Shown in pieces: positions 25,584 through 42,137 of a stretch of DNA of 62,632 nucleotides; the first letter of the stretch is position 1; each line of letters starts with the position of its first letter. Origin of the DNA: an uncultured Pseudomonadota bacterium (GTDB lineage: Bacteria; Pseudomonadota; Alphaproteobacteria; Rs-D84); contig CASFOK010000018.1 of the NCBI GenBank assembly GCA_949296475.1, positions 1 through 62,632 on the forward strand. The letters are read 5' to 3'. The notes beneath the pieces are model-generated. The model worked only from the letters and a program-made list of their open reading frames with translations, had not been told where the DNA came from and searched no databases. The position numbers and the translations under genes were made by a program.

Positions 25584-25686
25584 AAAAAATTGCACTTTCT
25601 TCTTTACTAATTTTTTTATTTAATATAAAATATAAATCAAGAACAAAAGAATTTGTTCTATCCAAAAAATAATAAAGGAGAGAAGA

Positions 25687-26025: not shown

Positions 26026-26029
26026 TAAG

Positions 26030-26234
26030 TCCCCGCATTTGCGGGGATTTTCATTTATTAAATCCGCATTTGCGGATTTTTTTAAAAAATATTTAGTCAG
26101 ATTTTTCAAAACGTCTGACTGAATATTTTTCAAGACAATCCGTTCGTGGACCTTGGATATTTTTGTCGTATGGCGCAAAATCGCATAACCAGAAAACAAA
26201 ATATTAATCAGCGCAATTCATTTGCGTTTTTTTT
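26030..26234 (+). promoter_or_regulatory. hairpin-rich capsid leader with several terminator-like stems
   Basis: Two CCGCATTTGCGG-core hairpins (26030-47, 26060-79), 17-bp stem 26085-26130, GCGCAA/TTGCGT plus T-run before RBS. Confidence 0.55.
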
Positions 26235-26257
26235 AATCAATAAAAAGGAATGTATAT

Positions 26258-27088
26258 ATGTCTGTTTCCATAGATCAAGTCTTCGTAAAACAATTCGAAG
26301 CAGATGTTCATTTGGCTTATCAGCAAATGGGCACAAAATTGCGTGCGACGGTACGCAGCAAATCTGGTGTTGTTGGTGCGTCAACCACATTCCAAAAAGT
26401 TGGTCGTGGTACCGCCAGTACAAAATCGCGTCATGGTATTGTACCTGTTATGAACTTGAATCATGAACCTGTTGAATGCTTGTTGCAAGATTATTATGCA
26501 GGCGATTGGGTAGATGCCTTGGATGAGTTAAAAACAAACGTTGACGAGCGTCGTGTTGTTGCCTCTGCCGGTGCGTATGCATTAGGTCGCAAAACCGATG
26601 AATTAATCATATCCGCAATGAGCAACGCAACAGATTCTGTTGGCGATTATACCACAGGACTGACAAAAGATTTAATCTTGTCTGCCGTTGAAGAATTGAA
26701 TTCAAAGGATGTTCCTGATGATGGCAGAAGATTTGCGGTTGTCGGTGTTCATCAGTGGAACGAACTGTTATCAATGGATGAATTTGTGTCGGCAGATTAC
26801 GTCGGTAATGATTTACCTTTGGTATCTGGCGGGGCTTCTAAAAAATGGTTGGGCATTACATGGGTGTTGCATAATGGTTTGCCTGTATCAGACGACGAAC
26901 GCGATTGCTTTATTTATCACGCAACTAGCATAGGTCATGCTTGCGGGCAAGAAGTAAAAACGGATATTTCTTGGCACGGCGAACGTGCGGCGCACTTTAT
27001 CAGCAACAGTATGTCCCAAGGTGCTGTGTTGATTGATGACGATGGCATCGTACGCATTAAATGTCTGGATAAAGAAGAAACAATTTAA
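26258..27088 (+). CDS. major capsid protein (podovirus/BPP-1-like family)
   Basis: SIDQ.FVKQFEADVHLAYQ.MG.KLR, DYYAGDWVD.LDELK, ALGRKTDELII, VPDDGRRF. Confidence 0.85.
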   Translation: MSVSIDQVFVKQFEADVHLAYQQMGTKLRATVRSKSGVVGASTTFQKVGRGTASTKSRHGIVPVMNLNHEPVECLLQDYYAGDWVDALDELKTNVDERRVVASAGAYALGRKTDELIISAMSNATDSVGDYTTGLTKDLILSAVEELNSKDVPDDGRRFAVVGVHQWNELLSMDEFVSADYVGNDLPLVSGGASKKWLGITWVLHNGLPVSDDERDCFIYHATSIGHACGQEVKTDISWHGERAAHFISNSMSQGAVLIDDDGIVRIKCLDKEETI

Positions 27089-27109
27089 AGATAATCAAAG
27101 GATATTAAT

Positions 27110-27337
27110 ATGGCTTTTCAGAATAAAAACTTATCTGTAATTGCATATGCTAATGGTTTTACATTGTGGCATTATGCGGCAAAAGAAACTTTGGCAACGA
27201 TATCTGCATCTGGATATTTTAATAGTGTAAAGACGTTAATGAACGCAGGCGATGTATTGATTGTAAATGCATCTGATAATACATCTATTAAAAAAATTGC
27301 TGTATCGGAAAATGTGACAGTTGCCGATTTAGTTTAA
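27110..27337 (+). CDS. small capsid-associated (decoration-like) protein
   Basis: Directly after capsid; LSV.AYANGFTLWHY...GYFN motif. Confidence 0.55.
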   Translation: MAFQNKNLSVIAYANGFTLWHYAAKETLATISASGYFNSVKTLMNAGDVLIVNASDNTSIKKIAVSENVTVADLV

Positions 27338-27388
27338 TCATATAAAGGGCGGTTTTATTGCCGCCCATATTTTTAAAGGGGGTATAAG

Positions 27389-27907
27389 ATGCTGACAAAA
27401 ATAGATTTATGTTCTATGGCGTTGTTAAAATTGGGGGAAAAATCTATACAGTCCCTGGTAGACGATACGCCCGCCGCCCAACTAAGTCGTACGTTATTTG
27501 ATCCCGTGGTAGATGCGTTGTTGGCATCGCACCCGTGGCGGTTTGCGTGCAAAGAGTTTAATTTAACGAAAAATTCAGATGGTGATTTTTTGATACCTTC
27601 TGAATGTTTAAGAATCATTAAGTGCAGCGGCGAAATCATCGGTAATAAAATCATCACCGCGTCAGAAAATATAAATATTGTCGCCATTGTTCGCGTTCCC
27701 GTTGAAACGTTCCCGAGTTATTTTGTATCTTTGGCTGCCACAAAATTGGCAATGGAATTTTGTATACCACTAATTGGAGAGCAAACTGTTTTTAGAATGC
27801 TGGCGGCTTTATACGAAACGGAATTACAATCTGCAAAATTCATAGACAGTACAACCACTGTTAACCGTGACATTGATAGTTTTTCTCTGGTTAACGTGCG
27901 TTTTTAA
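27389..27907 (+). CDS. tail tubular protein A / adaptor (T7 gp11-like)
   Basis: IDLCSMAL.KLG...IQSL.D, LL..HPW.FA, FPSYF. Confidence 0.75.
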   Translation: MLTKIDLCSMALLKLGEKSIQSLVDDTPAAQLSRTLFDPVVDALLASHPWRFACKEFNLTKNSDGDFLIPSECLRIIKCSGEIIGNKIITASENINIVAIVRVPVETFPSYFVSLAATKLAMEFCIPLIGEQTVFRMLAALYETELQSAKFIDSTTTVNRDIDSFSLVNVRF

Positions 27908-27922
27908 TTGTGGGGGATTACA

Positions 27923-29638
27923 ATGGGGGATTTCATAAAAACACAAAATTCTTTTGCACATGGCGAAGTCGCACCAGAATTTTTTGCGCATGATAATATT
28001 AATGGTTTATCGCGACTGGAAAATATGGATGTCTTGGCAGGCGGCGGTTTGTCTCGGCGGCGCGGATTGCAGCATATTGCTGATTTGGAATCAAATGCAA
28101 GGCTTATCGCGTTTTCGGTCAGTGAAAATGAAAATTACATATTGGCTTTGAAAAACAAGATTATATCAGTGTTTTACCAAGGTGAGAAAATAAAAGATTT
28201 ATTTTCACCGTGGGCTTTTGATGATTTAACAAAGTTACAATATGCGCAACGTTTTGGTACCATAATTTTTGTACATCCGGATTACCAGCCTTATGTTTTA
28301 AAAAAAGAATCGGATGATTTTGCGTTATCAAAATTTGATTTTGCGCGTAATGACTCTGATATGACGGTTAATATGCCGTTTATGAAGTTTGACGATGCGG
28401 AAAACATAAAAATTACCGTGACAGCAAACGATGCAGGTAATAATTACGCTACGTTTACAACGAATGAAAATTTTTGGACGACAGATGATACAGAAGGGCG
28501 CTTTTTGTTATTGGATAAGCAGTGGACAATAACAGAATACATCAGTCCGACAGTCGTAAAGGCGCATACAAATGGAACGTACAGTTTGCCAAGCGGGGCT
28601 GTGTCGGATTGGCGCGAAGCGGCGTTCAGTAAAAAACGTGGTTGGCCGTGCAGCATTACTTTTCATCAAGATAGATTGGTCTTTGGCGGTTCGCGTTCTT
28701 GGCCCAGTGGTGTATGGCTTTCCCAGGTTGGTCGGCATAATAATTTTAATGTCGGTACCGGTTTAGACGACGAAGCAATATTTATAACGTTGCTGTCGCA
28801 ACAGCGACAGCAAATTTGCACAGTTGTCAGCAGCGATAATTTGCAAATTTTAACATCAGCGGGTGAATGGGCGATATCCAGTAAACCTTTGACGCCGTCG
28901 GCTGTGGATATAAAGCAACATACATCGGTTGGCAGTGTATCGCAAAGGTATTTGCCGCCGCAAAAAATAGAAGGCGCAACCGTGTTCATTTCTAGCAGCA
29001 AAAAAGACATTCGTGAACTGAGTCTTGACCAGTTGGGTGAAAATTATAATGCCACCGATTTGTGTGCGTTTTCAAAGCATTTGATGCAAGAACCCGTTGA
29101 CGTTGCTTATAACGAAGAAACGCGTCAGTTATTCGTTGTTATGCAATCTGGCGATATGGCTGTGTTAAACCAAAATTCTGCCTTGGGCATTTCTGCATGG
29201 GGCAGTTATAAAACCCAAGGCCAATTTAAATCCGTTGCTACCATAAACGGAGAGACTTTCGTCGTTGTTTATCGTGATGATGAGTTTTGTTTGGAAAAGT
29301 TTTCAGATTCTGTGTTACAAGACGGTGACAAATATGGATTTGCGTTTGTCGCGTCTGCGTTGCCCTTACGTGCATCAGGGCATAACGCAAACAAAGTCAG
29401 ACTACGAAAAATAATGGCGCGTGTTTTAAACACGAAGACTTTATTTATAAACGATATGCGGGCGGATTTGCCTAATGAAGTGTATTCTGCGGAATCAAAT
29501 GGTTATAGCGGCGACGTTTCTATAAATTTATTAGGCTTGCAAAGAAACTGCATGAATGCGCCTTGGACAATCAAAAGCAGTGAACAATTACCGGCAACGG
29601 TATTATCCGTGACGATGTACGGGTATTACTTGGTATAA
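27923..29638 (+). CDS. tail tubular protein B / nozzle (T7 gp12-like)
   Basis: QNSF..GEVAP, GGL.RR.G, W.E.AFS..RGWP..ITFHQDRL.FGG. Confidence 0.8.
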   Translation: MGDFIKTQNSFAHGEVAPEFFAHDNINGLSRLENMDVLAGGGLSRRRGLQHIADLESNARLIAFSVSENENYILALKNKIISVFYQGEKIKDLFSPWAFDDLTKLQYAQRFGTIIFVHPDYQPYVLKKESDDFALSKFDFARNDSDMTVNMPFMKFDDAENIKITVTANDAGNNYATFTTNENFWTTDDTEGRFLLLDKQWTITEYISPTVVKAHTNGTYSLPSGAVSDWREAAFSKKRGWPCSITFHQDRLVFGGSRSWPSGVWLSQVGRHNNFNVGTGLDDEAIFITLLSQQRQQICTVVSSDNLQILTSAGEWAISSKPLTPSAVDIKQHTSVGSVSQRYLPPQKIEGATVFISSSKKDIRELSLDQLGENYNATDLCAFSKHLMQEPVDVAYNEETRQLFVVMQSGDMAVLNQNSALGISAWGSYKTQGQFKSVATINGETFVVVYRDDEFCLEKFSDSVLQDGDKYGFAFVASALPLRASGHNANKVRLRKIMARVLNTKTLFINDMRADLPNEVYSAESNGYSGDVSINLLGLQRNCMNAPWTIKSSEQLPATVLSVTMYGYYLV

Positions 29639-29654
29639 AAAATGGAGGTTAATT

Positions 29655-30002
29655 ATGGGACAACTTGTATCAGATGTAACAGATATATTGGATTATAAGA
29701 AATCAAAAAAAGATGCAGAAACAGAACGTCAAAAAGTTCTGGCTGACATTGCTGCAGATGAAAAGACAAAAACTAACTTGGTAAAGAAAACCTTGGCCAC
29801 GCAACGTGCAAAATATGGGGCGTCTGGTATGTCCGGTCGCAGCATGACGGAAGGCGCCGTCTTAAAACGCTTGAAATCCGAAACCGAAGAACCATACGAA
29901 GAAAAAAAGCGTACAAATATAGAAAAATTGAAAAAAATAAAAGTAGAAAAACCGAATTTATTACAATCTTTGTTGGATAAATTTGAGGACTTAATTGGTT
30001 AA
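29655..30002 (+). CDS. putative internal virion/ejection protein
   Basis: Position after nozzle; QRAKYGASG motif; helical. Confidence 0.5.
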   Translation: MGQLVSDVTDILDYKKSKKDAETERQKVLADIAADEKTKTNLVKKTLATQRAKYGASGMSGRSMTEGAVLKRLKSETEEPYEEKKRTNIEKLKKIKVEKPNLLQSLLDKFEDLIG

Positions 30003-30016
30003 CGCAGGGGGCGCAC

Positions 30017-30565
30017 ATGTACAAGGTATCTTATGTCGCAGACGGTGAAACGTCCGAGTTTTTGTTTGTATTCCCTTTTTTTCAATCTGCGGACATTCGT
30101 GTATCTGTGGACGAGAAGATTCTTTCGGACACAGAATACGCGGTGATTCCAAATGAAGAATACGACGGTGGTAACGTTGTTTTCCCTGTGCCACCAGAAA
30201 AAGATGTTAAAATAGACATTTTCAGACAGGTGGCGCTGTCGCGTGTCATAGACTATCAACCGACGGCAAAAATAGACCCGGAAAATCTAAACGCAGATTT
30301 TAATTTTCTGTTAGAAGCGTTTAAAGATTTACATAAAATAGAGGTTGATGTAACAGAATGGGAAAATATACATGACAACGTTATGCGTTTTTTGAATTAT
30401 ACCTTGCAGGTAATAGAAGACAAGTTGTCTGGCGGAACAGTTCTGGGTTTATATAGTAATCTGTTATCTGTATTAGAAAACGCGCTGCCAAAACTTATAA
30501 ACGATTATGGCAGCATAACCGAAGAAGCACCAAACGAAAATCGCGATGATTACGGCGTTTTATGA
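30017..30565 (+). CDS. tail fibre N-terminal anchor protein (T7 gp17 N-domain-like)
   Basis: Y.ADG.T..F.F.FPFF..ADI.V.VD, GG.V.F..PP, LNADF. Confidence 0.7.
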   Translation: MYKVSYVADGETSEFLFVFPFFQSADIRVSVDEKILSDTEYAVIPNEEYDGGNVVFPVPPEKDVKIDIFRQVALSRVIDYQPTAKIDPENLNADFNFLLEAFKDLHKIEVDVTEWENIHDNVMRFLNYTLQVIEDKLSGGTVLGLYSNLLSVLENALPKLINDYGSITEEAPNENRDDYGVL

Positions 30566-31160
30566 TTTTTTAGACCAATGGAATGAAATATTGGGCCTGA
30601 ATACGCCGGCACATCATAAGCAAATTATGGATTTTTTGGTCTCTGTACTGGAATCCGAACCGCATCGTGGTTTATTAATGTCTTTCAGGCATTCTGGCAA
30701 ATCAACAGTAGTTGGTATTTTTGCCGCGTGTGTTTTGTGCTTGCGGCCAGAAACAAGAATTTTGATTTTGTCGGCGGAAAATAGTTTGGCGGCGCGCATG
30801 GTTGCACATATTAAACACATTTTGGAAAATCATCCCAGATGCTTGGATTTGATACCAGATGTAAAAAAAGAGTGGGCAAACGGCAGGATAACAGTTAACA
30901 GACCAATTGGCATTCGGGAACCGTCGGTTGTTTGCCAGGGAATACACGGTAACATTACAGGTATGCGCGCAGATTTAATCATTTGCGATGACGTAGAGGT
31001 CCCGAATACTTGTAACACTGCTAGCAAACGCGAAACGTTACGTGAAAGATTGCGAGAGCTAGATTTTATATTATCGCCAACCGGTACCATGATATACATC
31101 GGTACGCCACATACTATGGATACAATTTATAGAACAACACAAGACGACATGACAAACTAA
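30546..31160 (+). CDS. terminase large subunit, ATPase half
   Basis: Walker A FRHSGKST, GNITGMRAD, Walker B IICDDVE, motif III IGTPH. Confidence 0.85.
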   Translation: MITAFYDFLDQWNEILGLNTPAHHKQIMDFLVSVLESEPHRGLLMSFRHSGKSTVVGIFAACVLCLRPETRILILSAENSLAARMVAHIKHILENHPRCLDLIPDVKKEWANGRITVNRPIGIREPSVVCQGIHGNITGMRADLIICDDVEVPNTCNTASKRETLRERLRELDFILSPTGTMIYIGTPHTMDTIYRTTQDDMTN

Positions 31161-31826
31161 TTATTGTTGCGCTTCTTCTTGTTCAGATGGTTTGATTGCG
31201 GTAATTAACGAACGTAATTTCTTTAACAGTTCTGCACCAGCATCGCCAAAAAGTGGCAGGTAAGTTTCATATTCAGGCATGTCCGCTTGTAATTGTGCGC
31301 GTGTACGTTCAGACAAGGGTTGCCTTAATATATCGCTTGCAACGTTCCATAGGTGATATGCTTGGTAAGTTTTATCAACGATTAACCATTTTTCTAGTAA
31401 TTGCGGTTTGGCAGATAAAACAGAACGTATCGCGACCAACCATTGATTCCCGAATTTTTTTACAATTGATAGTTGTTGTAATTTGTGTAAGCCGTCTTCG
31501 TCAGGGGTGAATTCGTTTATACCTTTTTCCAGTTCGGTCCATTCGGCGTTCGTTAATGGTATCGTAGCAACAGATTGCGCCATCATACCGCCATAAGGTA
31601 ACAGGTCGCGTTCAATGGAATCCATCGGGGTTTTGCCGCTGCGCAGATTTTCAATGTGCTTTACCAAGTTTTTCCCGGTTGGTAATTCACGCAATTCTTT
31701 TAATATTTCAGGGGTAGATTCATTAATAAAAACTTGATTAACAGCCGCCCAACCACCAAAGATTACGTGTTCTTGGCGATAAAGATTTAATAATTTTTGC
31801 GCTGTTACGCTGGCTTTTATTTTCAT
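31161..31826 (-). CDS. hypothetical protein
   Basis: 221-aa ORF, GGGGGA RBS, downstream of the XRE regulator. Confidence 0.75.
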   Translation of the reverse strand: MKIKASVTAQKLLNLYRQEHVIFGGWAAVNQVFINESTPEILKELRELPTGKNLVKHIENLRSGKTPMDSIERDLLPYGGMMAQSVATIPLTNAEWTELEKGINEFTPDEDGLHKLQQLSIVKKFGNQWLVAIRSVLSAKPQLLEKWLIVDKTYQAYHLWNVASDILRQPLSERTRAQLQADMPEYETYLPLFGDAGAELLKKLRSLITAIKPSEQEEAQQ

Positions 31827-31853
31827 TTTGTCCCCCCTGTGTGCAAAAGAATA

Positions 31854-32858
31854 TTATTCCATTACAATCATGATGACTTTGTGCATGGTTTTTCCGATGA
31901 TTTTTTCTTCTGGTGATACGATTTGACCGTATGTTTTGCCCTTGGAATCTTGGCGAACAACAACGACTTGTGCCGTGGCCGTATCATCGGCTTTCATCGT
32001 TTCAAAGTCTGTATCAATGCATACCGCCAAGTCGCCGACAGATACTGTTGCCTGCGAATCCACAAAAACATAAGATTTTTCAGGTATAAAACCGCCCAGA
32101 CGTTTAGAGTTTGGAATAACAGCGTACATGCCGGAACGGCCTTCTAGCGGAACCGGTGCGACAATCATGGTTTCGTCAGATTTTTTAAACGTCAGCGCCT
32201 TCCCGGCAGGCGTTGCAAATACAGGGATAAGTTTTTTACGTGCGCTGTCGTACAATTTTGCACCATAAAAACTGCTGTGATCAATGCCAGACATGGGGTT
32301 GCTGGGGATTAGGACGGATTTTACGCGTTCGGTAACCTTGTTTATTTGTTTGTTTAATTCGCCTGATTTATATAAATCTGCGATTTTATCAAACAAGGCT
32401 TCCGCGGTATAACCAAAGGAATTTGCCAAAGGTTCTATTTCGTTTTGATAAATTTCGCGTTGCCCAACTTCTATCTTGTGGTATACGGACAAGGTCATAC
32501 CTGCGTCTTTTGCAGCCTGAGCGATAGTTTTACCTGCTTGTTGGCGGACCTTGCGTAATCCGCTGCCAAATATTTTTAATCCGCTGTCCTCGTTGTCATT
32601 CAAGCGTCGCTTTATTTCCGTTTGCCATTGGTTTGCGACGTCATCTGATTCTTTGATGAAAATGTCTGATAACTTGCAACCTAATATATTACATATGTTC
32701 AATAATTGTTTTTGGTTCAAGCGACGAACGCCTTTTTCTATCTTGGACACGGCGGATAAAGACAAATTTGCCTGACGGGCCAGCGCGGTCATTTTCATGC
32801 CGCTTGCCAAACGGATGTTTCGTATGTTGTTTGGAAAGATTATTTCTTCTTGGGCCAT
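31854..32858 (-). CDS. tandem XRE-HTH regulator with degenerate S24-like C-terminal domain
   Basis: Two HTHs (LSLSAVSKIEKG, MTLSVYHKIEVG); AAGGAG RBS before ATG 32858. Confidence 0.85.
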   Translation of the reverse strand: MAQEEIIFPNNIRNIRLASGMKMTALARQANLSLSAVSKIEKGVRRLNQKQLLNICNILGCKLSDIFIKESDDVANQWQTEIKRRLNDNEDSGLKIFGSGLRKVRQQAGKTIAQAAKDAGMTLSVYHKIEVGQREIYQNEIEPLANSFGYTAEALFDKIADLYKSGELNKQINKVTERVKSVLIPSNPMSGIDHSSFYGAKLYDSARKKLIPVFATPAGKALTFKKSDETMIVAPVPLEGRSGMYAVIPNSKRLGGFIPEKSYVFVDSQATVSVGDLAVCIDTDFETMKADDTATAQVVVVRQDSKGKTYGQIVSPEEKIIGKTMHKVIMIVME

Positions 32859-32924
32859 TCTGAATCTCCTTGCACTTATTGACAAATATTAGTTAATTTT
32901 CACAGAATAGGCAAGTATAAAATG

Positions 32925-34475
32925 TTATAAAGGCATATCGTCTGGAATATCGTCGGGATTAATGGCCACGGTGTCAGAATCTTGGGCGGGTAAAGTCTGC
33001 GTAGGGTTATCAATAAAATCTGGAACGCCCCTTTCCGCCATTTCATCCAGGTTATCAAATAAACTGTAATCGCCAAAGAACGCCAGTCGCACAGTTTCAG
33101 GGCGACCATGTCTGTTTTTACCAATAATGACGTCCGCCTTACCGCGTGCACGTTCCAGACGTTTTTGATAACTTTCAATAATTTTGTCGGTTGCGTTACC
33201 AGATATTCTTTGCGATGGGTCGCGATTTTCAAGATAATATTCTTCGCGGTATGTAAACATTACAATGTCAGCGTCTTGCTCAATAGAACCAGATTCGCGC
33301 AAGTCCGCCAGTTGCGGTCGTTTATCGTCGCGTGATTCAACGCTGCGCGATAATTGCGACAGCGCAATCACCGGTACGTCCAGTTCTTTGGCCAACATTT
33401 TCAGGCCGCGCGTAATTTCAGAAATTTCTTGAACGCGGTTATCGTTGCGCTTTCCGCCGGGTGATGTCATCAGTTGTAAATAGTCAACAACAATCAGGGC
33501 GATACCGCCACACTTACGTGCCAATCTTCTTGCGCGCGTTCGCATCATCGGGACGGACATGCCGGGGGTGTCGTCTATGTACAAAGGAACCCGTCCAATC
33601 GCGTCGGAATATTGCGACATTTTAAGAAAGTCTTCATCTGTCAAAGATCCTTCGCGCATGGCGGTTGCAGGAATCTTAGACTGCGATGATAATACGCGGG
33701 CCGCCAATTGCGAGTGTGACATTTCAAGACTGAAAAACACCACCGCCCCTTTATACTGTTCGTTTGCGCGTCCGTAAAGAATAGCATTCGCAGCGTTAAA
33801 AGCGATATTCATTGCCAAAGTCGTTTTTCCCATCGCGGGTCGTCCTGCAATGATTATCAAATCAGAATGGTGCAAGCCGCTGATTGATTTATCCAACGCC
33901 GTTAAACCCGTTGTTAAACCGGATAATTTTCCATCGGCTTTATATGCAATTTCCGCTTCCTTCAAGGCGCTTTGCAATGCAGTTGCGATAGATGCTACTT
34001 CGCGTTCGGATATGCCCGCGGACGCCATTTCAAACAGTTTTTGTTCCGCGGTTTCTATTTGCGCGGATACAGGGTTGTCTAAATCTTCAACAAACGCCGA
34101 ATCTGTGATAGATTGACCCAAGTTTATCAAGTCGCGACGTAACGCGTTTTCATAAACAATGCGTCCGTATTGTTCAACGTTGACGACGGTTGCACCGGCC
34201 CCCGCCAATTGTGTAAGGTATTCAACGCCGCCGACGGATTCCAAAGTACCTTGTTGTTCAAGGTAATTTTTAGCGGTGATTATATCAAACGGTATTCCCG
34301 CAGCAAACTGCTTTTCAGCCAATTTGTATATTTCTTGGTGTGCGGGGTGGTAAAAATGTTCAGGACGTAAGAATTCTGATACGCGTTCCAACGCGCGATT
34401 GTTCATCAGAACAGCCGCCAAAACAGCCTGTTCAGCCTCTAAGTTAGTCGGCAAAGTTTTGGGAGTAAAGTCCAT
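32925..34475 (-). CDS. dnaB: replicative DNA helicase (host type)
   Basis: P.NLEAEQAVL, GRPAMGKT, FSLEM, VDYLQL, LSQLSR, LRESGSIEQDAD, KNRHG. Confidence 0.97.
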   Translation of the reverse strand: MDFTPKTLPTNLEAEQAVLAAVLMNNRALERVSEFLRPEHFYHPAHQEIYKLAEKQFAAGIPFDIITAKNYLEQQGTLESVGGVEYLTQLAGAGATVVNVEQYGRIVYENALRRDLINLGQSITDSAFVEDLDNPVSAQIETAEQKLFEMASAGISEREVASIATALQSALKEAEIAYKADGKLSGLTTGLTALDKSISGLHHSDLIIIAGRPAMGKTTLAMNIAFNAANAILYGRANEQYKGAVVFFSLEMSHSQLAARVLSSQSKIPATAMREGSLTDEDFLKMSQYSDAIGRVPLYIDDTPGMSVPMMRTRARRLARKCGGIALIVVDYLQLMTSPGGKRNDNRVQEISEITRGLKMLAKELDVPVIALSQLSRSVESRDDKRPQLADLRESGSIEQDADIVMFTYREEYYLENRDPSQRISGNATDKIIESYQKRLERARGKADVIIGKNRHGRPETVRLAFFGDYSLFDNLDEMAERGVPDFIDNPTQTLPAQDSDTVAINPDDIPDDMPL

Positions 34476-35322
34476 GTCTGATATAGTATATAAAAATTTT
34501 CTTTTTTCAACGCCTTTTTTATCTGGATACCGTAAATTAAAAATACCAATAGTTGACGCCGACGGTAAACCGGCTTGGCCGGAATTGTTCCCAATAGAAC
34601 GAATAGAAGAGGTCAGAAAAACCGTTGGGGACAGATATTTTTCTGCGCAGATGATGTTGACTTTTGTTGCGCCCGACAGGGCGCGCCTGGACCCAGATTC
34701 GTTACATTTATACGATGCAGATTTTGACGGTCGCAGTGCTAAAATAGGCGATTTTTTAATAACCGGGGTGACTGCTTATTGGGACCCTTCGTCCGGCAGG
34801 AAAAAGTCGGACGGCAGCGTATGCGTTTTAATGTACCGGGACGATAAGAATAAACTGTTTTTCGTTCATGATGTGCAGTATTTATTAGTACCCGACGAAG
34901 AAACACATCCTTTGGCGCGTCAGTGTCAAATGGTGTTGGATTTTTTGTCTAAACATTCGCTGCACAGAATTTATATTGAAACAAACGGTTTAGGAAACGC
35001 CTTGCCCGAGATTATGCGTACGGTCGTCAAACAGCGCGGTGTAAGCATACAAATAAACAAAGTTTTCAATCACGAAAAAAAAGAAACAAGAATCCTAGAA
35101 AACATAGAACCCGTGTTAACGACTGGGCGTTTGTATGTTCATCGTCGTGTTCAATCCACGCCTTTATTATCAGAAATGTTGGGTTGGTCGCCTATTGGCA
35201 ACATCGGTCATGATGATGGTCTGGATGCGGTTGCCGGGGCTATTTCTGCGTTGCCGGCACCCATCAGGCCGTTCGGGCAGATAATGCAACCTTTCAAAGC
35301 GAATACTGATTTCAAGTTATAA
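34474..35322 (+). CDS. terminase large subunit, nuclease half
   Basis: AWPELF, F.AQMML, WDPS, IETNG.G, HDDGLDA; GGGAG 8 nt before ATG 34474 (ORF track starts at 34399). Confidence 0.8.
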   Translation: MSDIVYKNFLFSTPFLSGYRKLKIPIVDADGKPAWPELFPIERIEEVRKTVGDRYFSAQMMLTFVAPDRARLDPDSLHLYDADFDGRSAKIGDFLITGVTAYWDPSSGRKKSDGSVCVLMYRDDKNKLFFVHDVQYLLVPDEETHPLARQCQMVLDFLSKHSLHRIYIETNGLGNALPEIMRTVVKQRGVSIQINKVFNHEKKETRILENIEPVLTTGRLYVHRRVQSTPLLSEMLGWSPIGNIGHDDGLDAVAGAISALPAPIRPFGQIMQPFKANTDFKL

Positions 35323-35341
35323 CAACGCAAAAGGAGAAAAA

Positions 35342-36565
35342 ATGCAAAATAATCTACAACAAATGTATCGTCGCGCCTTAGATTTGCGCGCGCCTTGGTT
35401 AAATAGGTGGGATAGTGCGTTGCGCTATACGATGCCAACCGCAGATGATGAGGTGGCCACGTTATTTGATGCAACTGCTGCTGATGCAGTAGATAACTTG
35501 GCTGCATCAATATATTCTTTGCTTACGCCACCGGAATCTTTATGGTTATCGCTGGTGCCGGAAAGTGAAGATTCGCCAGACGCTATTACTGCAACAATGG
35601 CATTACGTGCGAACTTAAACGATTCTAATTTTTACACGACTATTCATCAGTGTTATTTAGACCTTGTGATTTTAGGTACTGCATGTTTATTTATGTCGGA
35701 AAATCCGATTGGTGCGGATTCTGCGTTTTCTTTTACTGCCATACCCATGAAAGACATAGCGATATTGCAAAACGCAGTATTTCATACGACCAGTATGTCT
35801 GCACGCGAAGTCATGGAAAAATATCCGTCTTGGACGCCGCCTGCCGATATTCGTGACGCCATCAAGAAAGACCCAGAAACGCCGATACGATTGGTACAGA
35901 GTCTGGTCGGTAAAGATTTTACCGCATGGTTAGACGTTGGCGGTAATATAGAAAACAACATTGTATCAACGGGGACGTTTGAAACGAATCCGTATTTAAT
36001 CTTTCGTTGGTCTGTCGCCAGCGGCGAGTTATATGGGCGCGGTCCTGTATTGCGAGCGTTGCCGGATATCAAGACCGCCAATAAAGTCGTAGAATTGGTA
36101 TTAAAAAACGCAACCATTGCAGTATCTGGTATTTGGCAAGCAGACGACGACGGTGTAATAAACCTTTCAAATATAAATTTAACGCCAGGAGCAATTATAC
36201 CAAAAGCGGTTGGCAGTTCAGGTCTGACGCCGTTATCGTCTGGTGCAGACTTTGACGTTTCGCAGATAATATTAAAAGATTTACGCGAACGTATTCGCCA
36301 TGCGCTACTTGCGGATAGACTGGGGCTGTTGTCGGAAAAAGAGATGACCGCGACCGAGATAATGGCGCGTAACGCGGACATGATGAGAATATTGGGCGCA
36401 ACGTATGGTCGTTTGCTGCATGAGTTTATTAGACCGTTATGTGAAAGAGGTCTGCAGATATTATCTCGTCGTGGGGTGATAGATAAGATATCTTTGCATA
36501 GCGATGCAGAATTGAAGTACATAGCGCCGATAGCACAGATGGCAATAGAAGAAACATTATTATGA
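35342..36565 (+). CDS. portal / head-tail connector (T7 gp8-like), compact
   Basis: FD.TA.DAV.NLA, DLV.LGTA, RW..SGE.YGRGP..ALPDIKT, MTATEI..R, LGATYGRL. Confidence 0.88.
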   Translation: MQNNLQQMYRRALDLRAPWLNRWDSALRYTMPTADDEVATLFDATAADAVDNLAASIYSLLTPPESLWLSLVPESEDSPDAITATMALRANLNDSNFYTTIHQCYLDLVILGTACLFMSENPIGADSAFSFTAIPMKDIAILQNAVFHTTSMSAREVMEKYPSWTPPADIRDAIKKDPETPIRLVQSLVGKDFTAWLDVGGNIENNIVSTGTFETNPYLIFRWSVASGELYGRGPVLRALPDIKTANKVVELVLKNATIAVSGIWQADDDGVINLSNINLTPGAIIPKAVGSSGLTPLSSGADFDVSQIILKDLRERIRHALLADRLGLLSEKEMTATEIMARNADMMRILGATYGRLLHEFIRPLCERGLQILSRRGVIDKISLHSDAELKYIAPIAQMAIEETLL

Positions 36566-36771
36566 CAAAGGTGGCTATTATGAAAGACATAGAGCAAAAT
36601 TATGCGCGTACATTTTCAACGTCAGCGGGGCAGGCCGTGTTGTCACATTTACGCAAAATAACCATAGAAAGAGTACTTGGACCGAACGCCAGTGATTCAG
36701 AACTTCGCGGTCTAGAGGCACAGCGGGCCTTGGTACATCAGATAGAAAACATGATAGAGCGGGGCAAGTAA
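36562..36771 (+). CDS. small portal-linked protein (Bbp19-like)
   Basis: Y.RTF.T.AG.AVL.HLR....LE.QR.LV..I pattern after portal. Confidence 0.6.
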   Translation: MTKVAIMKDIEQNYARTFSTSAGQAVLSHLRKITIERVLGPNASDSELRGLEAQRALVHQIENMIERGK

Positions 36772-37031
36772 TGTCAATGCAGTACGGCGGCGCGACGGGA
36801 ATATTGGACTTTCTGCGAGACAGTTGGTTTCTTATCGCGTTTATTGCAGGCATGATATATTGGGTCGCACGTCAAGATTCTTCACTGGCGGAACTAGAAC
36901 GCGCAGACCACCGGATAACCACGTTGGAAAACAGAACGACTATACTAGAAACGGGTATAGGACAGTTACAAATAAAATTAGACGGCATAAAAGAAGACGT
37001 CGGTTTAATCAAGACGGCGGTTATAAAATGA
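36771..37031 (+). CDS. membrane-anchored coiled-coil protein (holin/spanin-like)
   Basis: One TM helix plus heptad repeat; TAATG coupling. Confidence 0.55.
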   Translation: MSMQYGGATGILDFLRDSWFLIAFIAGMIYWVARQDSSLAELERADHRITTLENRTTILETGIGQLQIKLDGIKEDVGLIKTAVIK

Positions 37032-37035
37032 AAAA

Positions 37036-37062
37036 AATCCCGCGATTGCTTCGCGGGATTAA
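37036..37062. terminator. terminator ending the portal operon
   Basis: AATCCCGCGA-TTGCT-TCGCGGGATT. Confidence 0.75.
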
Positions 37063-37066
37063 ATCC

Positions 37067-37216
37067 TTAACAACCGCCGGTTGCGTTACCGATGATTTTA
37101 GAAATAGAAATATCTTTGTGGAATAAGAAATCGTATTCGCAATTTCCTTGTTTATAAGAACCAGTGCAGGCCGCCAACGTTAATACGGCAAACAACGCCA
37201 ACATAATTTTTTTCAT
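37067..37216 (-). CDS. small lipoprotein, YhfL/DUF4223-like (missed by ORF track)
   Basis: MKKIMLALFAVLTLAACTGSYKQGNCEYDFLFHKDISISKIIGNATGGC; AAGGAG RBS. Confidence 0.75.
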   Translation of the reverse strand: MKKIMLALFAVLTLAACTGSYKQGNCEYDFLFHKDISISKIIGNATGGC

Positions 37217-37282
37217 ATACTTTCTCCTTTTTCTTATAAGTAGACTTTTAAATTATAAGATTAATTGGTGATGTTTGCAAGA

Positions 37283-37627
37283 TTATATTGCGCCTTGAAT
37301 CCACTTCATTTTATATGGGGTAAAGACGATGACGTCAAACCTGGCATTACCGGTCCAATGTATCTGAGCCAAATATGTTTCTGCGGCATTGTGTAGACGT
37401 TTAATTTGTGCGCGGGTTATGGCGTCCAAGGCGTTTTCAGTATTATTTCTTTTTTTCACTTCAACGAACAGTATTAAATTGTGTCGTTTTGCGATGATGT
37501 CAATTTCTGCTCTATTGGAAAAGCGCCCGGTTACGTATCTTTTTTTCAAGATGTGGAAACCGTGTAATCGCAAATATATTCGCGCGCATAATTCAGTGAA
37601 TAAACCGACACGATAAGAATTCATCAT
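37283..37627 (-). CDS. yraN: YraN (UPF0102) family protein
   Basis: EIDIIA, LFVEVKKR, RFDV. Confidence 0.88.
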   Translation of the reverse strand: MMNSYRVGLFTELCARIYLRLHGFHILKKRYVTGRFSNRAEIDIIAKRHNLILFVEVKKRNNTENALDAITRAQIKRLHNAAETYLAQIHWTGNARFDVIVFTPYKMKWIQGAI

Positions 37628-37672
37628 GTAAAGAATTATAAAACAAAACCGAAAATAACAAAAGGATAAAAA

Positions 37673-38128
37673 ATGTCAAAGCAAATACAGATAAGACGAG
37701 GCAGTGCGACGGAACACGAAGACTTCACGGGTGCGCTTGGCGAGGTTACGATGGATACGACGAATAAAACGTTGCGCGTACATGACGGGGAAACGGCGGG
37801 CGGCATAGCCATTGCCAAACAGAATGAGTTGGATAATATAAAAAATTATTTATTAAAAATAGATTTAGATTGGGATAATAAAATTGATTGTGCTAGTACA
37901 GTCAATATAACTATTAATAAAAGTGGTTTTATGTTGTGTCGTGGTTCTACATATTCTTTAGATTGGGTGGAAGCAGATTTTAAAACAGAAATATTACGAG
38001 AGTATATATTATCTAATAACTACACAACAGTTTGGGCACCGGTTTATGAGGGACAACATCTTAAACAACGTCAAAAATCTGAATATAGCACCTCTTTTTT
38101 TATACCGTACAAAAGTATTTCAGAATAA
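37673..38128 (+). CDS. fibre protein with BPP-1 Mtd-like N-terminal domain
   Basis: QIRRGSATEHEDFTGALGEVTMDTTNKTLRVHDGETAGG. Confidence 0.75.
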   Translation: MSKQIQIRRGSATEHEDFTGALGEVTMDTTNKTLRVHDGETAGGIAIAKQNELDNIKNYLLKIDLDWDNKIDCASTVNITINKSGFMLCRGSTYSLDWVEADFKTEILREYILSNNYTTVWAPVYEGQHLKQRQKSEYSTSFFIPYKSISE

Positions 38129-39025
38129 ACACATATAAATATTAAAAATCGTATAATTAGGACAGAACAAAAAAACTCTAAATCGTTTAGTTAATTTTTT
38201 TCTGTCCTGTTTTTTTAAATTTTTTCTTATGTTTTTTTTATAAAAATTGTGAATAATTTTAAACAATTGTTTGTGTTGTATTCTATTAAAAGGCATGTCT
38301 AAATATCGTAATTCGAAGGGTTCGTGTTCTAGAAATTTTGCTAAATGTAAAGAGTGCGATTCCCATAAATTATATTTATTGTAAAAGGAAGTTAAAATAT
38401 TAAACCATTGAGGAATTTGGCTTAAAGTTTTATCACATGATTTTTTTATTTGTAAGTGATTTTGCGCATCATGTTTACGGTAATTATATTTTACATTTGG
38501 TTCAAATGATATTTTTTTTGTAAGAGCCAGCAATTGATGCGAAAATAATCCATCTTCACATGGTTGTAAACCAATAGGGAAAATAATTTCTGGGAATCGC
38601 TTTAAGAACTTATTACGTACAATAAACCCCATACATGGTAAAGCAGCAGGCAGTGGCATGCGATTTTTAAAAGATTTACCTAAAACAACAATATCAGAAT
38701 TTCCTTTTATCGCTGTAAGATAGGCGCGTTCCAAAAAAGTTGGACAGACTGTATCATCAGAATCCATAAAAAATAAAAATTCGCCAGAAGCAAGGCTAAT
38801 TCCTTTATTCCTTGCGCTGGATACACCGCCGTTATTTTGATAAACATACTTGATACGAGAGTCTCGTTTAACATAGTCTAAACATATTTTTTCGCAGTTA
38901 TCGGGGCTTCCATCATTTACTAAGATTAATTCCCAGTCGGTCAGAGTTTGAGAAAGTATGCTATCTATACACTCTGCTAGGTATTTTTCTACATTATAAA
39001 CTGGTACAATAATAGAAATTTTCAT
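38120..39025 (-). CDS. glycosyltransferase family 2
   Basis: ISIIVPVYN, NDGS.D, DSDD. Confidence 0.9.
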   Translation of the reverse strand: MKISIIVPVYNVEKYLAECIDSILSQTLTDWELILVNDGSPDNCEKICLDYVKRDSRIKYVYQNNGGVSSARNKGISLASGEFLFFMDSDDTVCPTFLERAYLTAIKGNSDIVVLGKSFKNRMPLPAALPCMGFIVRNKFLKRFPEIIFPIGLQPCEDGLFSHQLLALTKKISFEPNVKYNYRKHDAQNHLQIKKSCDKTLSQIPQWFNILTSFYNKYNLWESHSLHLAKFLEHEPFELRYLDMPFNRIQHKQLFKIIHNFYKKNIRKNLKKQDRKKLTKRFRVFLFCPNYTIFNIYMCLF

Positions 39026-39972
39026 TGGCGTTTCCTTTGTATCTTTTTGGGGAAAACACGGGTTAAATTATCACAAATATTGTTAATTTCTTTTAAAGAT
39101 ATTTTATATTCTTTTTTTAGTCTTTCGACATCAGAATCAGATATTTCAGTTTTTCGTAAATCTATTGGTGCCTGATAAGGACAAGAGAAAACGGAATAAT
39201 AATCTCTAAATTTATATTCTTTCCCAACGACTCGGTCTGAAAGTAAAATATGTTTGTTTGGAATTCCTAAAGAGTCTGCGCAAATTAATCCGTGCATAGC
39301 AGAAGATAATATAAATTTGCATTGACTTACTTGTTGAACAACTGCAGAAGTAGACTGCTGAATATCAATAAAGCAAAAAGATAGTTTTTTTAATTTTATA
39401 TTTTTTAAGTATGCACTTTTTTTATCTACATAATGACATATTATACCTACATCATATAATTTTTCTTTTTTTCTATTTGTAAAAATACGGTTAATTAATA
39501 GTCCTGGGTCACCTAAAACAACATTTGATAAATCTGAATTTAAAATTTTTTTACAACGTTCTAAAGTTAATTTGCCTCGCAAAGCATGTATTTTTATAGG
39601 TCTGCAAAATTTTTCGTTTTCTGATACGGGCGGCATAATAAATCCGCTACCCCAAATATGTAATAAATTATCGGTATTATTTGTTGGTGTGCTAAGAAAC
39701 GAATCTAAAATAGAACCAATACCGATAAAAGATGCGTTTTTATTTGCGGGTTGTAAGCAAAATTTAACTTTAAAATATTTCATTACATCGATATTTAGCA
39801 TATCGCCAAAATTATTATCTACATACCAAAAGTAGATACGATATTTATAAAAGTACTTCTTGATATAAAAAAAATGAAAATTTTTTAATTTTTTTTTAAC
39901 AAAACTACGTGTATTAGGAAAAGGTATAAATTTACAAATGAAATCTATTAAGAAATTTTTGAAATCAACCAT
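39022..39972 (-). CDS. polysaccharide pyruvyl transferase (ExoV-like)
   Basis: NFGD, GSIL, WGSG, LRG.LT, GDPGLL, SSAMHG, FRDYY. Confidence 0.85.
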   Translation of the reverse strand: MVDFKNFLIDFICKFIPFPNTRSFVKKKLKNFHFFYIKKYFYKYRIYFWYVDNNFGDMLNIDVMKYFKVKFCLQPANKNASFIGIGSILDSFLSTPTNNTDNLLHIWGSGFIMPPVSENEKFCRPIKIHALRGKLTLERCKKILNSDLSNVVLGDPGLLINRIFTNRKKEKLYDVGIICHYVDKKSAYLKNIKLKKLSFCFIDIQQSTSAVVQQVSQCKFILSSAMHGLICADSLGIPNKHILLSDRVVGKEYKFRDYYSVFSCPYQAPIDLRKTEISDSDVERLKKEYKISLKEINNICDNLTRVFPKKIQRKRQ

Positions 39973-41122
39973 TTAAAATCCTTTTTAAATTGTCTATGCT
40001 TTCTTGTTTGATTATGGTTGCGGTTTCGGTTAACTTTGCCCGTTTTTTATCATATTCGGTTTCTGTCATTTCAATTGCTTGTTCCATTGCAGATGCTAAA
40101 TCGCGGTCATATATAATCGCGTTTAAATCATTAAATCTGTAAAAGCCGGCAAATTTTTGGTCTATTACAGGTATTTTTTTAAATCCGTATATTAATTGTG
40201 CAGAACCTGTTACGCCTGTCGTGATATAGCGTTCGTGCTCTTTTACGTCTGGGTCAAGTAAAGGCAGGAAAAAGTCGGCTTGTTCCATATAGTTAAACAT
40301 TTCTGGAAACTTTAAGCGACCGGTTATCGTTATATAAGGACGTATATTTTCTGGCAAATGTTCTATTTGTCCATTCCCTATGGCAATAACGCGAAAATGT
40401 TTGTGTTTATTAGCCAAAATTTCTAACGCGTTTATAAGCGTATTAAAATTTTTCCTTTTGGCCTCTACCTTACCTACGATTATAAACGTAGTGATTTTAT
40501 TTTTAGGTAACACTCTTACCTTACCAAAATCATGCGGATTTATAAAAATGCCTTTATCAAATTTTCCTAAAGTAATTATCCGATTTTCTTTCAACTCATT
40601 TTCTTCTGAAAATATTGCGATATCTTTTAAGTCGTGTTCTATTATATAAGGTTTTAATTGTGCTCTTTTAAAATATGGTAATAAAGTACAATAATCTTGG
40701 TGTTTGTTAGGTTTCGTTTTATAATAAGCACTAGACATTAAAAAAATATGTTTATATTTTTTCATATGTTTACTATTTATAATTGCGCGTATTGTGGTCG
40801 GACTTGATTTATAAATTCTTATGCCGCGCATGTTGTGACGACAAAATGGCTTTTCTTCGTGTACAGTTTTGTTAATTACGATATCTATATTATACCCTTT
40901 ATTTTGCAAGTAAGGAATAAAGCCAGAGATAACTTCGCCATGGCAATTATTGAATTCTATTAAACATATATTATTCGGTCTCGTTCTAGAAGAAATAAAG
41001 AACAAAAATTGTGTGATTGCATAGATGTCATATTTCATTATTGCACGTTTTATTTTACGGCGCGTTTCAGGAAAGGGTATTAATAAACCGATGATGTTAG
41101 AAATAATTTTTTGTGTGTGCAT
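39965..41122 (-). CDS. glycosyltransferase (GT-B/GT4-like)
   Basis: VGK..KRKN, ITGRL, ADFF; operon context. Confidence 0.65.
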   Translation of the reverse strand: MHTQKIISNIIGLLIPFPETRRKIKRAIMKYDIYAITQFLFFISSRTRPNNICLIEFNNCHGEVISGFIPYLQNKGYNIDIVINKTVHEEKPFCRHNMRGIRIYKSSPTTIRAIINSKHMKKYKHIFLMSSAYYKTKPNKHQDYCTLLPYFKRAQLKPYIIEHDLKDIAIFSEENELKENRIITLGKFDKGIFINPHDFGKVRVLPKNKITTFIIVGKVEAKRKNFNTLINALEILANKHKHFRVIAIGNGQIEHLPENIRPYITITGRLKFPEMFNYMEQADFFLPLLDPDVKEHERYITTGVTGSAQLIYGFKKIPVIDQKFAGFYRFNDLNAIIYDRDLASAMEQAIEMTETEYDKKRAKLTETATIIKQESIDNLKRILNG

Positions 41123-41123
41123 T

Positions 41124-42137
41124 TTATCCTCTTTTATAAGATGCTACTTGTATACCGCAGAAGTAAATACGTCTATAACCATCTGAAAAACGTTTTTTAC
41201 TGAAGAAAAATAGATTTTTAGGTTTTTTTATAAAACTTTCATATTCATTATTCAAAATTGCTTTTGTTTTTTTTCTGCCAAAAGTTTTCATTAAAAATTT
41301 TTTTGATATGTTTGCATTTACCAACCAGTTAAACAATAGTTTCCTATCGTCGCCGTTATCAAAGTTTTTATTAAATGTGTAGCAAAAATTATCAAGTATA
41401 TGTTTACTTATGAATAAATTTCTATCGGATTCTGCTGAAAAAGTGTTTTCTCGTAAGATATCCAGCTTGTAATTAAGCATATTTATTCGTGATAGTACTT
41501 TATTATGTGTAAGCGTTTTAGAATCTAATGAATCTGTTCTGTTGACATAATGATAGAAAACGTCGTTTTGAATGACTAACGAAGGTTTTAAAACTACAAG
41601 TTTTGATAAAAAAGCAGAGTCTTGACCTGTCATAATATTGTCTGGATAAATAAGTTTGTTTTTCGTTAAAAATGTTTTTTTATATATAGCCGACCAATGT
41701 TCAGCACAAAAATGAAAGATATTTTCAGGTATCATAGCATTTAGTATGCTTTTACGTATACTTGTGTCGTTATATATTAACACATTTCCTTTTATTATAT
41801 CTGCTTTTGTTTGTATTGCGGCGTTATATAATTTTTCATAAAAATCTAAGTCAACATAATCATCAGGGTCAACGAAACTTACATATGTGCCCCTAGATTT
41901 TTTTAACCCATCATTTCTCGCAATTGCCACGCCTTGATTTTTTTGTTTTTTTATTACTTGGATTCGTTTGTCTTTTCTCGCATAATCACGTAAAATTTTT
42001 AATGTATTATCATTTGATTTATCATCTATACAGATAATTTCAATATCTTTCAGAGTTTGATGTGTCAGACTTTCAAGGCATCTCTTGACATATTTTTCTA
42101 CGTTATAACACGGAACTATAACAGATACTTTAGGCAT
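41124..42137 (-). CDS. glycosyltransferase family 2
   Basis: VSVIVPCYN, DDKSND, DPDD. Confidence 0.9.
   Translation of the reverse strand: MPKVSVIVPCYNVEKYVKRCLESLTHQTLKDIEIICIDDKSNDNTLKILRDYARKDKRIQVIKKQKNQGVAIARNDGLKKSRGTYVSFVDPDDYVDLDFYEKLYNAAIQTKADIIKGNVLIYNDTSIRKSILNAMIPENIFHFCAEHWSAIYKKTFLTKNKLIYPDNIMTGQDSAFLSKLVVLKPSLVIQNDVFYHYVNRTDSLDSKTLTHNKVLSRINMLNYKLDILRENTFSAESDRNLFISKHILDNFCYTFNKNFDNGDDRKLLFNWLVNANISKKFLMKTFGRKKTKAILNNEYESFIKKPKNLFFFSKKRFSDGYRRIYFCGIQVASYKRG

Follow-up and report, generated by a model that had tools for sequence, protein, structure and literature searches.

In a reduced genome of the alphaproteobacterial order Rs-D84, the gene for the replicative DNA helicase DnaB and the gene for the nuclease half of a T7-type large terminase (TerL-C) start on opposite strands from a single palindromic CATG, and each gene appears to harbor expression signals of the other. 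The DNA in question, the window, is the whole of contig CASFOK010000018.1 (assembly GCA_949296475.1), a 62,632-nt stretch from an uncultured Pseudomonadota bacterium; dnaB lies at 32925..34475 on the minus strand and TerL-C at 34474..35322 on the plus strand. Comparison with related loci indicates that the expression signals at their junction are real, conserved, and interlocked: both starts, a promoter block, its geometry, and a constraint on a Shine-Dalgarno (SD) sequence all emerge from it. We favor, at a probability of about 0.7, a reading in which both starts and their signals are real: dnaB would be expressed from a leaderless or nearly leaderless mRNA, made from a promoter buried in codons 4-16 of TerL-C; TerL-C would be translated through an SD that occupies the opposite strand of dnaB codons 4-5; and the tight packing would reflect genome compaction after dnaB moved into its present place.

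The identities of the two genes are clear. The dnaB product (516 aa, ATG start) contains both the N-terminal DnaB (PF00772) and the C-terminal DnaB_C (PF03796) domains, passes the equivalog cut-offs of NF006606 (617 bits; cut-off 540) and TIGR00665 (514 bits; cut-off 385), and is a cellular-type replicative helicase; the phage_DnaB model TIGR03600 gives it 414 bits, below the cut-off of 498.65. It is also the single DnaB_C match in the 882-kb genome, and the ratio of nonsynonymous to synonymous substitution rates (dN/dS) of the gene is 0.05 (41 pairs). The DnaB family profiles begin to match at residues 6-8, consistent with a start at ATG 34475, and the start codon is ATG in 75/75 loci. TerL-C (282 aa; PF22530, PF17289, phrog_38, NF033889 positions 335-500) is the C-terminal piece of a two-gene terminase, comprising the end of the ATPase domain and an RNaseH-like nuclease; on its own, it reaches 113 bits against NF033889 (E = 1.6e-32), below the cut-off of 150.

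Read directly from the sequence, CATG occupies 34473-34476: its CAT is the complement of the dnaB ATG (34475-34473), ATG 34474-34476 starts TerL-C, and the two start codons overlap by 2 nt. That one CATG starts both genes had been proposed in a first-pass annotation of this DNA, and coordinates, open reading frames (ORFs), and Pfam identities agree with it. The overlap is also conserved. We compared two sets of loci: 20 congeneric ones (the window's own plus 19) and a wider set, the best 80 of 408 relatives drawn from one-genome-per-species contigs, which overlaps the first set and includes the window's own record. dnaB and TerL-C are head-to-head in 20/20 congeneric loci and have CATG in common in 19/20; the exception, L017, reads CATTATG, with the G lost and a new in-frame ATG 3 nt downstream, a pattern that looks compensatory. 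The junction is readable in 78 loci of the wider set, and CATG is common to both genes in 73 of them: 49 are window-like (the short form), and in the others an in-frame insert of 15 nt (15 loci) or 18 nt (9 loci) directly follows the TerL-C ATG. Two of the remaining five (L065 and L067) have a spacer of ~30 nt between the starts, and three (L095, L109, and L113) have more divergent junctions. In L109 and L113, dnaB seemingly begins 5 codons earlier, with its ATG again 7 nt past a TAnnnT hexamer. These two loci also contain a CATG, but the plus-strand ATG in it meets a stop after two codons, so TerL-C must start farther downstream. The common CATG persists among species whose synonymous sites are near saturation (dS of at least 0.9 in the closest pairs).

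On the TerL-C side of the junction, there is a marked dearth of synonymous change. Read on the minus strand, a conserved block consists of AAAAAA, GGCG, TTGAAA, 16 nt, and TACTAT. TACTAT (34488-34483), in TerL-C codons 4-5, ends 7 nt before the dnaB ATG and has the form of a -10 hexamer; TTGAAA (34510-34505), in codons 11-13, has that of a -35 hexamer; and the A-tract (34520-34515), which we take to resemble a proximal UP element, lies directly upstream of the -35 and is conserved 100% in 49/49 short-form loci. A promoter scan returned the same TTGAAA-16-TACTAT pair that had been proposed earlier, with 9/12 matches to consensus. Where two of the 20 congeneric loci encode the same residue, they use the same codon with a frequency of 0.89 in TerL-C codons 1-10 and 0.80 in codons 11-20, against 0.29-0.57 in the remaining 26 ten-codon windows (gene mean 0.47); codons 1-30 of dnaB, by comparison, show ordinary synonymous variation (0.48-0.52 versus a gene mean of 0.46). 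Across the 49 short-form loci, conservation of third-codon positions is 84-100% between 34476 and 34518, with a single departure at 34485 (67%), the variable middle of the -10; the A-tract marks the end of this block, and from 34521 onwards third-position conservation drops to 31-88%. A -35-like box, a spacer of exactly 16 nt, and a TAnnnT -10 are present in 78/78 loci; the -35 is TTGAAA in 69/78, and the -10 is TACTAT in 41, TACCAT in 22, and TAACAT in 9. We also considered an operator-like palindrome around the -10 (ATATAGTATAT) and rejected it for lack of conservation, the mismatching position being G or T in many relatives. The block thus looks like a sigma-70-type promoter for dnaB, situated wholly within the first 16 codons of TerL-C.

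If the -10 ends only 7 nt from the dnaB ATG, where does the ribosome bind? The base before the ATG is C, and the 7-nt interval leaves no room for a dnaB SD. By the rules of sigma-70 start-site choice, transcription should begin at or next to the A of the dnaB ATG; mRNAs of this kind exist, an example being that of lambda cI made from PRM. Since the -10 is 7 nt from the ATG and an SD is lacking, the dnaB mRNA is most likely leaderless, with a predicted start at or within 1-2 nt of A34475, and its AUG would be read without a leader, a consequence that the first-pass annotation had not drawn. Relatives in which the geometry has changed provide a telling comparison. An SD core is found in 0/49 short-form loci, but in 26/26 loci in which 15-, 18-, or ~30-nt insertions have lengthened the distance to 22, 25, 39, or 40 nt, an SD core (AAGG or AGGA) lies 7-8 nt before the dnaB ATG; in 2 of the 3 divergent loci, the ATG is again 7 nt after the -10. 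Intermediate distances, between 7 and 22 nt, do not occur among the loci compared. These features recall what a study of Caulobacter crescentus reports for leaderless mRNAs, from reporters and the transcriptome (PMC8459731): they prefer AUG, are inhibited even by short leaders, and need an accessible 5' AUG, and mRNAs with leaders shorter than 10 nt are rare. dnaB resembles the Caulobacter leaderless genes in its fixed, short -10-to-AUG distance, lack of an SD, and strict AUG, and the dnaB loci resemble them in avoiding very short leaders, with distances here of 7 nt or at least 22 nt. Unlike in those genes, the whole dnaB promoter is coding sequence of a divergent neighbor, and the first base pair upstream of the dnaB transcript, whose start we place by sequence, would be the last base of the TerL-C start codon.

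The dnaB geometry is not an isolated case. Among 698 crude ORFs of at least 150 aa in the genome, TAnnnT ends exactly 7 nt before the first ATG 38 times, compared to 10-26 times at spacings of 1-13 nt; adding the demand for a TTG -35 and no SD leaves 21/698 ORFs at 7 nt, dnaB among them, and 0-9 at other spacings. dnaB displays the sequence hallmarks of a leaderless gene, namely no SD, a -10 at 6-8 nt, and an AUG start, and the excess at 7 nt suggests that this reduced genome contains a distinct class of leaderless genes. Approximately 21 ORFs of the genome share the full arrangement of a TTG -35, a 16-18 nt spacer, TAnnnT, 7 nt, and ATG, without an SD; besides dnaB, two of them lie in the window, at 19059-19883 and 17080-18039, both on the minus strand.

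The dnaB mRNA might, of course, have a leader after all: another promoter, deeper in TerL-C or beyond it, could produce an SD-less leader, and the block at 34476-34520 would then be a regulator site or an RNA element. The dnaB start is placed by sequence, and a simple test finds no SD core for 324/698 crude ORFs (~46%), so SD-independent initiation on leadered mRNAs may occur in this organism. We nevertheless judge this explanation improbable. Third-position conservation ends sharply at 34520, and a second conserved block was not seen in TerL-C; in 78/78 loci, the block is built exactly as a promoter would be, its spacer fixed at 16 nt; no Rfam family matches at the junction; and the appearance of an SD whenever the -10-to-ATG distance grows (26/26) is hard to explain unless the mRNA begins just past this -10.

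The other half of the junction belongs to TerL-C. Its candidate SD, GGGAG, lies on the plus strand at 34461-34465, 8 nt before the ATG, and is the complement of dnaB codons 4-5 (Thr-Pro); genome-wide, SD cores are mostly 6-9 nt from the ATG, with a mode of 7-8 nt, and the TerL-C spacing fits. Codon choice in dnaB points to selection for this sequence. In 75 loci, Thr4 is encoded by ACT (28) or ACC (47) and never by ACA or ACG, which together account for 61% of the Thr codons in the rest of these genes; Thr7, just beyond the SD, uses ACA 27 times. Pro5 is CCY in 61/75 loci versus a background of 36%. By these choices, the plus strand always presents a purine run, [AG]GG[AG]G. The position of the TerL-C start is also well constrained: an upstream ATG is found in 0/73 loci, and 14/73 lack any in-frame start upstream. 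TTG 34399, which we considered as an alternative, is present in just 31/73 loci, and the extension that it would add aligns to nothing in intact terminases. In L067, where the two starts are apart, the N-terminus of TerL-C is unchanged behind a new spacer with its own GGGGG, and the other families of the order encode TerL-C as an ORF of its own with its start at the equivalent place, in several behind a canonical SD.

Is TerL-C a working gene at all? One could imagine a decaying relic, untranslated or not translated from ATG 34474, whose 5' end is conserved solely on account of the dnaB promoter. Indeed, its first 20 codons are conserved at the level of DNA rather than for protein, inserts of 5 to 6 codons are tolerated at its N-terminus, and it is one piece of a split terminase, scoring by itself 113 bits against an NCBIfam cut-off of 150. 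Yet the ORF is intact, at 281-289 aa, in 20/20 loci, and its median dN/dS is 0.20 (34/190 pairs, those with dS < 2), a value obtained with dS near saturation; the nuclease acidic residues D104, E169, D247, D248, and D251 are invariant across families, and the gene is present in 36/41 genomes of the order. These observations argue that TerL-C is functional. Together with an identical split point in every family examined, the compensatory ATG in L017, and the SD constraint in dnaB codons 4-5, they leave decay as a highly improbable account.

Several points weigh against the reading in which dnaB is leaderless and TerL-C depends on an SD in dnaB. Its support comes from sequence comparison, and because the genomes compared are related to one another, the counts exaggerate how much independent support there is. 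A permissive pattern was used in the search that gave 78/78 loci, and the region contains 3 promoter-like sites versus 2.1 +/- 1.1 in shuffles; a single sequence is not above chance here, and the promoter pair is taken as more than chance because it is conserved among relatives. The start of dnaB transcription is placed by promoter geometry and could lie 1-2 nt upstream of the ATG; a leader of this length would already lower translation in Caulobacter reporters (PMC8459731). Something other than an SD, e.g., codon preferences at the 5' ends of leaderless mRNAs, could account for the purine bias at dnaB codons 4-5. CATG is not common to both genes in 5/78 loci, and thus the exact overlap is not obligatory. 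Finally, no pair of TAnnnT and a -35-like box recurs in at least 30% of 74 loci within 400 nt upstream of TerL-C.

Where, then, does TerL-C transcription start? In dnaB codons 1-110, conserved third positions do not cluster, and the only positions conserved at 90% or more are Glu-GAA and Phe-TTT. A plus-strand candidate, TTGGGA-17-TATAGT (34459-34487), was rejected: a transcript made from it would begin past ATG 34474, and the bases of its -35 vary among the loci. The TerL-C promoter may be unconserved or depend on a dedicated activator; alternatively, TerL-C may be reached by read-through from upstream particle genes across the 3.3 kb of the antisense dnaB operon. Because no conserved TerL-C promoter is apparent within 330-400 nt inside dnaB, the interlock looks asymmetric: TerL-C hosts the whole dnaB promoter, whereas dnaB hosts the TerL-C SD and 5' untranslated region. 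The first-pass annotation had placed the nuclease SD within dnaB codons and the dnaB promoter within nuclease codons, and both placements have gained comparative support, the former from the Thr4/Pro5 bias and the latter from the synonymous constraint and the recurrence of the motif; its notion of interlocked genes survives in this lopsided form.

How did a helicase gene come to reside between the two halves of a terminase? In the window, TerL-C is separated by 3.3 kb of opposite-strand genes from TerL-N (204 aa; 30546..31160, plus strand; PF03237, phrog_38, NF033889 positions 2-192), the N-terminal ATPase piece, which scores 224 bits against NF033889 (cut-off 150). TerL-N aligns to residues 1 to ~203 of intact T7-like terminases, including Walker A, Walker B, and the IGTPH motif, and TerL-C aligns to the remainder. 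Taken together, the pieces thus resemble the T7-type large terminase of NF033889 in score (with the N piece above the cut-off and the C piece, alone, below it) and in catalytic motifs, Walker A/B and IGTPH in TerL-N and the RNaseH-like nuclease acidic residues in TerL-C. Unlike an intact enzyme of this type, which is a single polypeptide, the terminase here is encoded by two ORFs, even in families in which they are adjacent; the cut falls after IGTPHxxDTIY, and ~80 residues between the two conserved segments of intact phage homologs are largely missing. Separate ATPase and nuclease terminase genes have been annotated in some actinobacteriophages; the works found in our literature search on split terminases concerned other genes.

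The split is old. TerL-C homologs were found in the 36 genomes mentioned above (24/24 in family f1, 2/4 in f2, 6/6 in f3, 1/1 in f4, 2/2 in f5, and 0/3 in f6), with identities to TerL-C of 54-72% within the genus and 32-41% in other families. In the five genomes of f2, f4, and f5, TerL-N and TerL-C are neighboring but distinct ORFs on one strand, with 170-380 nt between them; in f3, they flank the portal gene. In the six genomes of other families that we examined, TerL-N ends just after IGTPHxxxIY, the motif written above as IGTPHxxDTIY, and the start of TerL-C lies a few residues ahead of the conserved FL-G-[FY]-x-LKIP segment. Since the split point is the same in all families examined, the two-gene terminase would predate the families of the order, and the insertion of dnaB into the terminase gap, by this comparison, appears younger than the split: in five genomes of other families, dnaB lies elsewhere. 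At gathering thresholds, the Rfam matches in the window and in five loci from other families are all tRNAs, with no intron or known RNA at the gap or the junction.

dnaB does not live alone. Downstream of it, on the same strand, are a gene for a double-HTH (XRE-type) regulator (31854-32885) and a 221-aa ORF of no recognized family (31161-31826); the gaps between the three genes are 39 and 27 nt, and they probably form one operon, in which case the dnaB mRNA would also carry the two neighbors. The order TerL-N, then the 221-aa ORF, the HTH gene, and dnaB on the opposite strand, then TerL-C is found in 74/80 loci; of the remaining 6, L082 has a differing layout, and the rest are truncated where their contigs end. 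On the 5.4-kb L082 contig, the C-terminal two-thirds of dnaB is directly upstream of TerL-C on the same strand, which may reflect either a misassembly or a rearrangement. The far end of the block is as tight as the dnaB end: the window has TAATTA at 31158-31163, where the plus-strand stop codon of TerL-N directly adjoins the minus-strand stop codon of the 221-aa ORF, and in 44/74 loci the two stops overlap by 4 nt. The dnaB block thus lacks intergenic DNA on both sides, and terminators would not fit. In the scenario that we consider most plausible, in the window's own family the cell's only dnaB and its two neighbors would have settled in the gap of a terminase already split in the ancestor of the order, and genome compaction would then have removed all intergenic DNA. 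The double-HTH gene and the 221-aa ORF accompany the particle cluster in family f3 too, where dnaB lies elsewhere (L027 and L028), and the HTH protein weakly matches Wmk, a two-HTH family of Wolbachia prophage WO (E = 2.6e-5, far under the cut-off); the two proteins may be regulators of the particle cluster.

What happens when both genes are expressed? An SD in dnaB codons 4-5 means that a TerL-C mRNA carrying it is antisense to at least dnaB codons 1-5, as the first-pass annotation had argued, and overlaps the 5' end of the dnaB mRNA by at least ~15 nt. TerL-C transcription would run head-on through the dnaB promoter, and the resulting mRNA would pair with the 5' end of the dnaB mRNA; some mutual interference is thus to be expected. 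It is a larger step to a regulatory switch, as the first-pass annotation suggested, in which induction of the particle or packaging genes sends rightward transcription and antisense RNA across the junction, blocking the dnaB promoter and the 5' AUG, so that the helicase is made no more. The converse direction, in which dnaB promoter activity keeps TerL-C and the portal gene silent, is at least as plausible. The geometry, with an SD in dnaB codons 4-5 and a promoter over TerL-C codons 4-16, makes some interference unavoidable; neither end of the dnaB block in most loci leaves room for a terminator; and leaderless translation depends on an accessible 5' AUG (PMC8459731). However, neither a promoter nor an operator is conserved within 330-400 nt upstream of TerL-C. 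Moreover, 5/78 species have separated the starts and 24 have shifted the dnaB -10 by 15-18 nt, arguing that the exact overlap is dispensable, and other families keep the particle genes with dnaB elsewhere, so the coupling is not needed for the particle system. We consider a switch unlikely.

The surroundings of the junction are a mixture of the mundane and the exotic. The window, a contig from the chromosome of an 882-kb genome (97.7% complete), includes housekeeping genes of an ordinary Gram-negative bacterium: BamA, LpxI, RseP, PriA, RecG, and RNase E/G. In its middle (24906-38128) is a T7/BPP-1-like structural set, also seen in loci L024-L034 and encoded on the plus strand. To the left of dnaB are genes for a T7-type scaffold (24906), capsid (26258), tail tubes A and B (27389 and 27908), and a fiber N-terminus (30017), followed by TerL-N; to the right, immediately downstream of TerL-C, are a T7-type portal, or head-to-tail connector, gene (35342..36565; PF12236, E = 4e-81), a Bbp19-like gene, and a gene for a 151-aa Mtd_N-domain protein (37673-38128), which is just the N-terminal domain of the BPP-1 major tropism determinant. 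Pfam and PHROGs scans of the window proteins recognized no small terminase, polymerase, integrase, or lysis gene in the cluster. The cluster is kept in 36/41 genomes of the order, with gene order that varies by family; because TerL-C identity falls with taxonomic distance, gene order is conserved, and dN/dS is 0.20, it appears to be inherited vertically and under purifying selection. Judged by its genes, it looks like a domesticated, possibly gene transfer agent (GTA)-like element of a type undescribed for Alphaproteobacteria. Directly after it, on the minus strand, are four glycosyltransferase/pyruvyl-transferase genes (38120-42137) with a GC content of 27-32% versus ~40% elsewhere, which may be a horizontally acquired surface-polysaccharide island.

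A genome paper on Enterousia places that genus in the uncultured order Rs-D84, all of whose genomes are reduced; the accessible part of its text does not mention phage, terminase, capsid, gene transfer agent, or dnaB. GTA clusters have been described in reduced endosymbiont genomes (PMC9254644), in a text whose accessible part mentions no T7-like cluster, Rs-D84, or split terminase. Our searches on Enterousia, Rs-D84 terminases, and T7-like GTAs in reduced Alphaproteobacteria found no description of a cluster with a two-gene terminase. The likeness to known GTAs, such as RcGTA-like elements and the BaGTA of Bartonella, is known here from genes alone and lies in a phage-derived structural and packaging cluster, its vertical inheritance, its occurrence in reduced genomes, and the absence of a recognizable replication, integration, or lysis module next to the cluster in the window scans. 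Unlike RcGTA, which has an HK97-siphovirus set, this cluster consists of T7/BPP-1-like genes (podovirus portal, scaffold, tail tubes, Bbp19, Mtd_N) and a two-gene terminase.

These comparisons invite a bolder idea, which we find doubtful enough to call distinctly unlikely: that the CATG interlock and the stop-to-stop abutment together constitute a commitment switch in a new, podovirus-type GTA. If this were true, activation of the particle operon would drive transcription through the 3.3 kb of antisense dnaB-HTH-orf221 and the dnaB promoter, shutting off the only replicative helicase and a co-transcribed regulator in the particle-making subpopulation; in the remaining cells, an active dnaB promoter would keep nuclease and portal expression switched off.

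How new is the junction itself? Leaderless mRNAs, divergent gene overlaps, and promoters inside neighboring genes are all known already. Face-to-face promoters subject to transcriptional interference are exemplified by pR and pL of coliphage 186, and the dnaB/TerL-C pair shares with such divergent, overlapping arrangements the opposite reading directions, the placement of signals within each other's transcribed region, and the expectation of collisions and promoter occlusion. It differs from face-to-face promoter switches in that just one of the two promoters is identified here, that an essential housekeeping gene is set against a phage-derived one, and that the genes overlap by 2 nt of their start codons, an overlap maintained across the genus. 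What is unusual is the combination: a phage-derived gene whose synonymous positions contain the complete promoter of an essential gene, two start codons in one palindrome, conservation throughout the genus, and natural alternation between leaderless and SD-led forms.

The junction is thus an unusually clean natural case of two genes that share DNA for their expression signals, and it comes with a built-in evolutionary control, the relatives in which the promoter has been pushed 15-30 nt away and which all carry an SD. It would lend itself to the study of leaderless versus SD-led initiation, of the limits that overlapping codes place on protein N-termini, and of interference in compacted genomes. 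The setting may outweigh the junction. Uncultured gut Alphaproteobacteria of an entire order, probably Rs-D84 and here the genus Enterousia, maintain a T7/BPP-1-like particle set in genomes of less than 1 Mb, and if particles are made, they would represent a new type of gene transfer agent.

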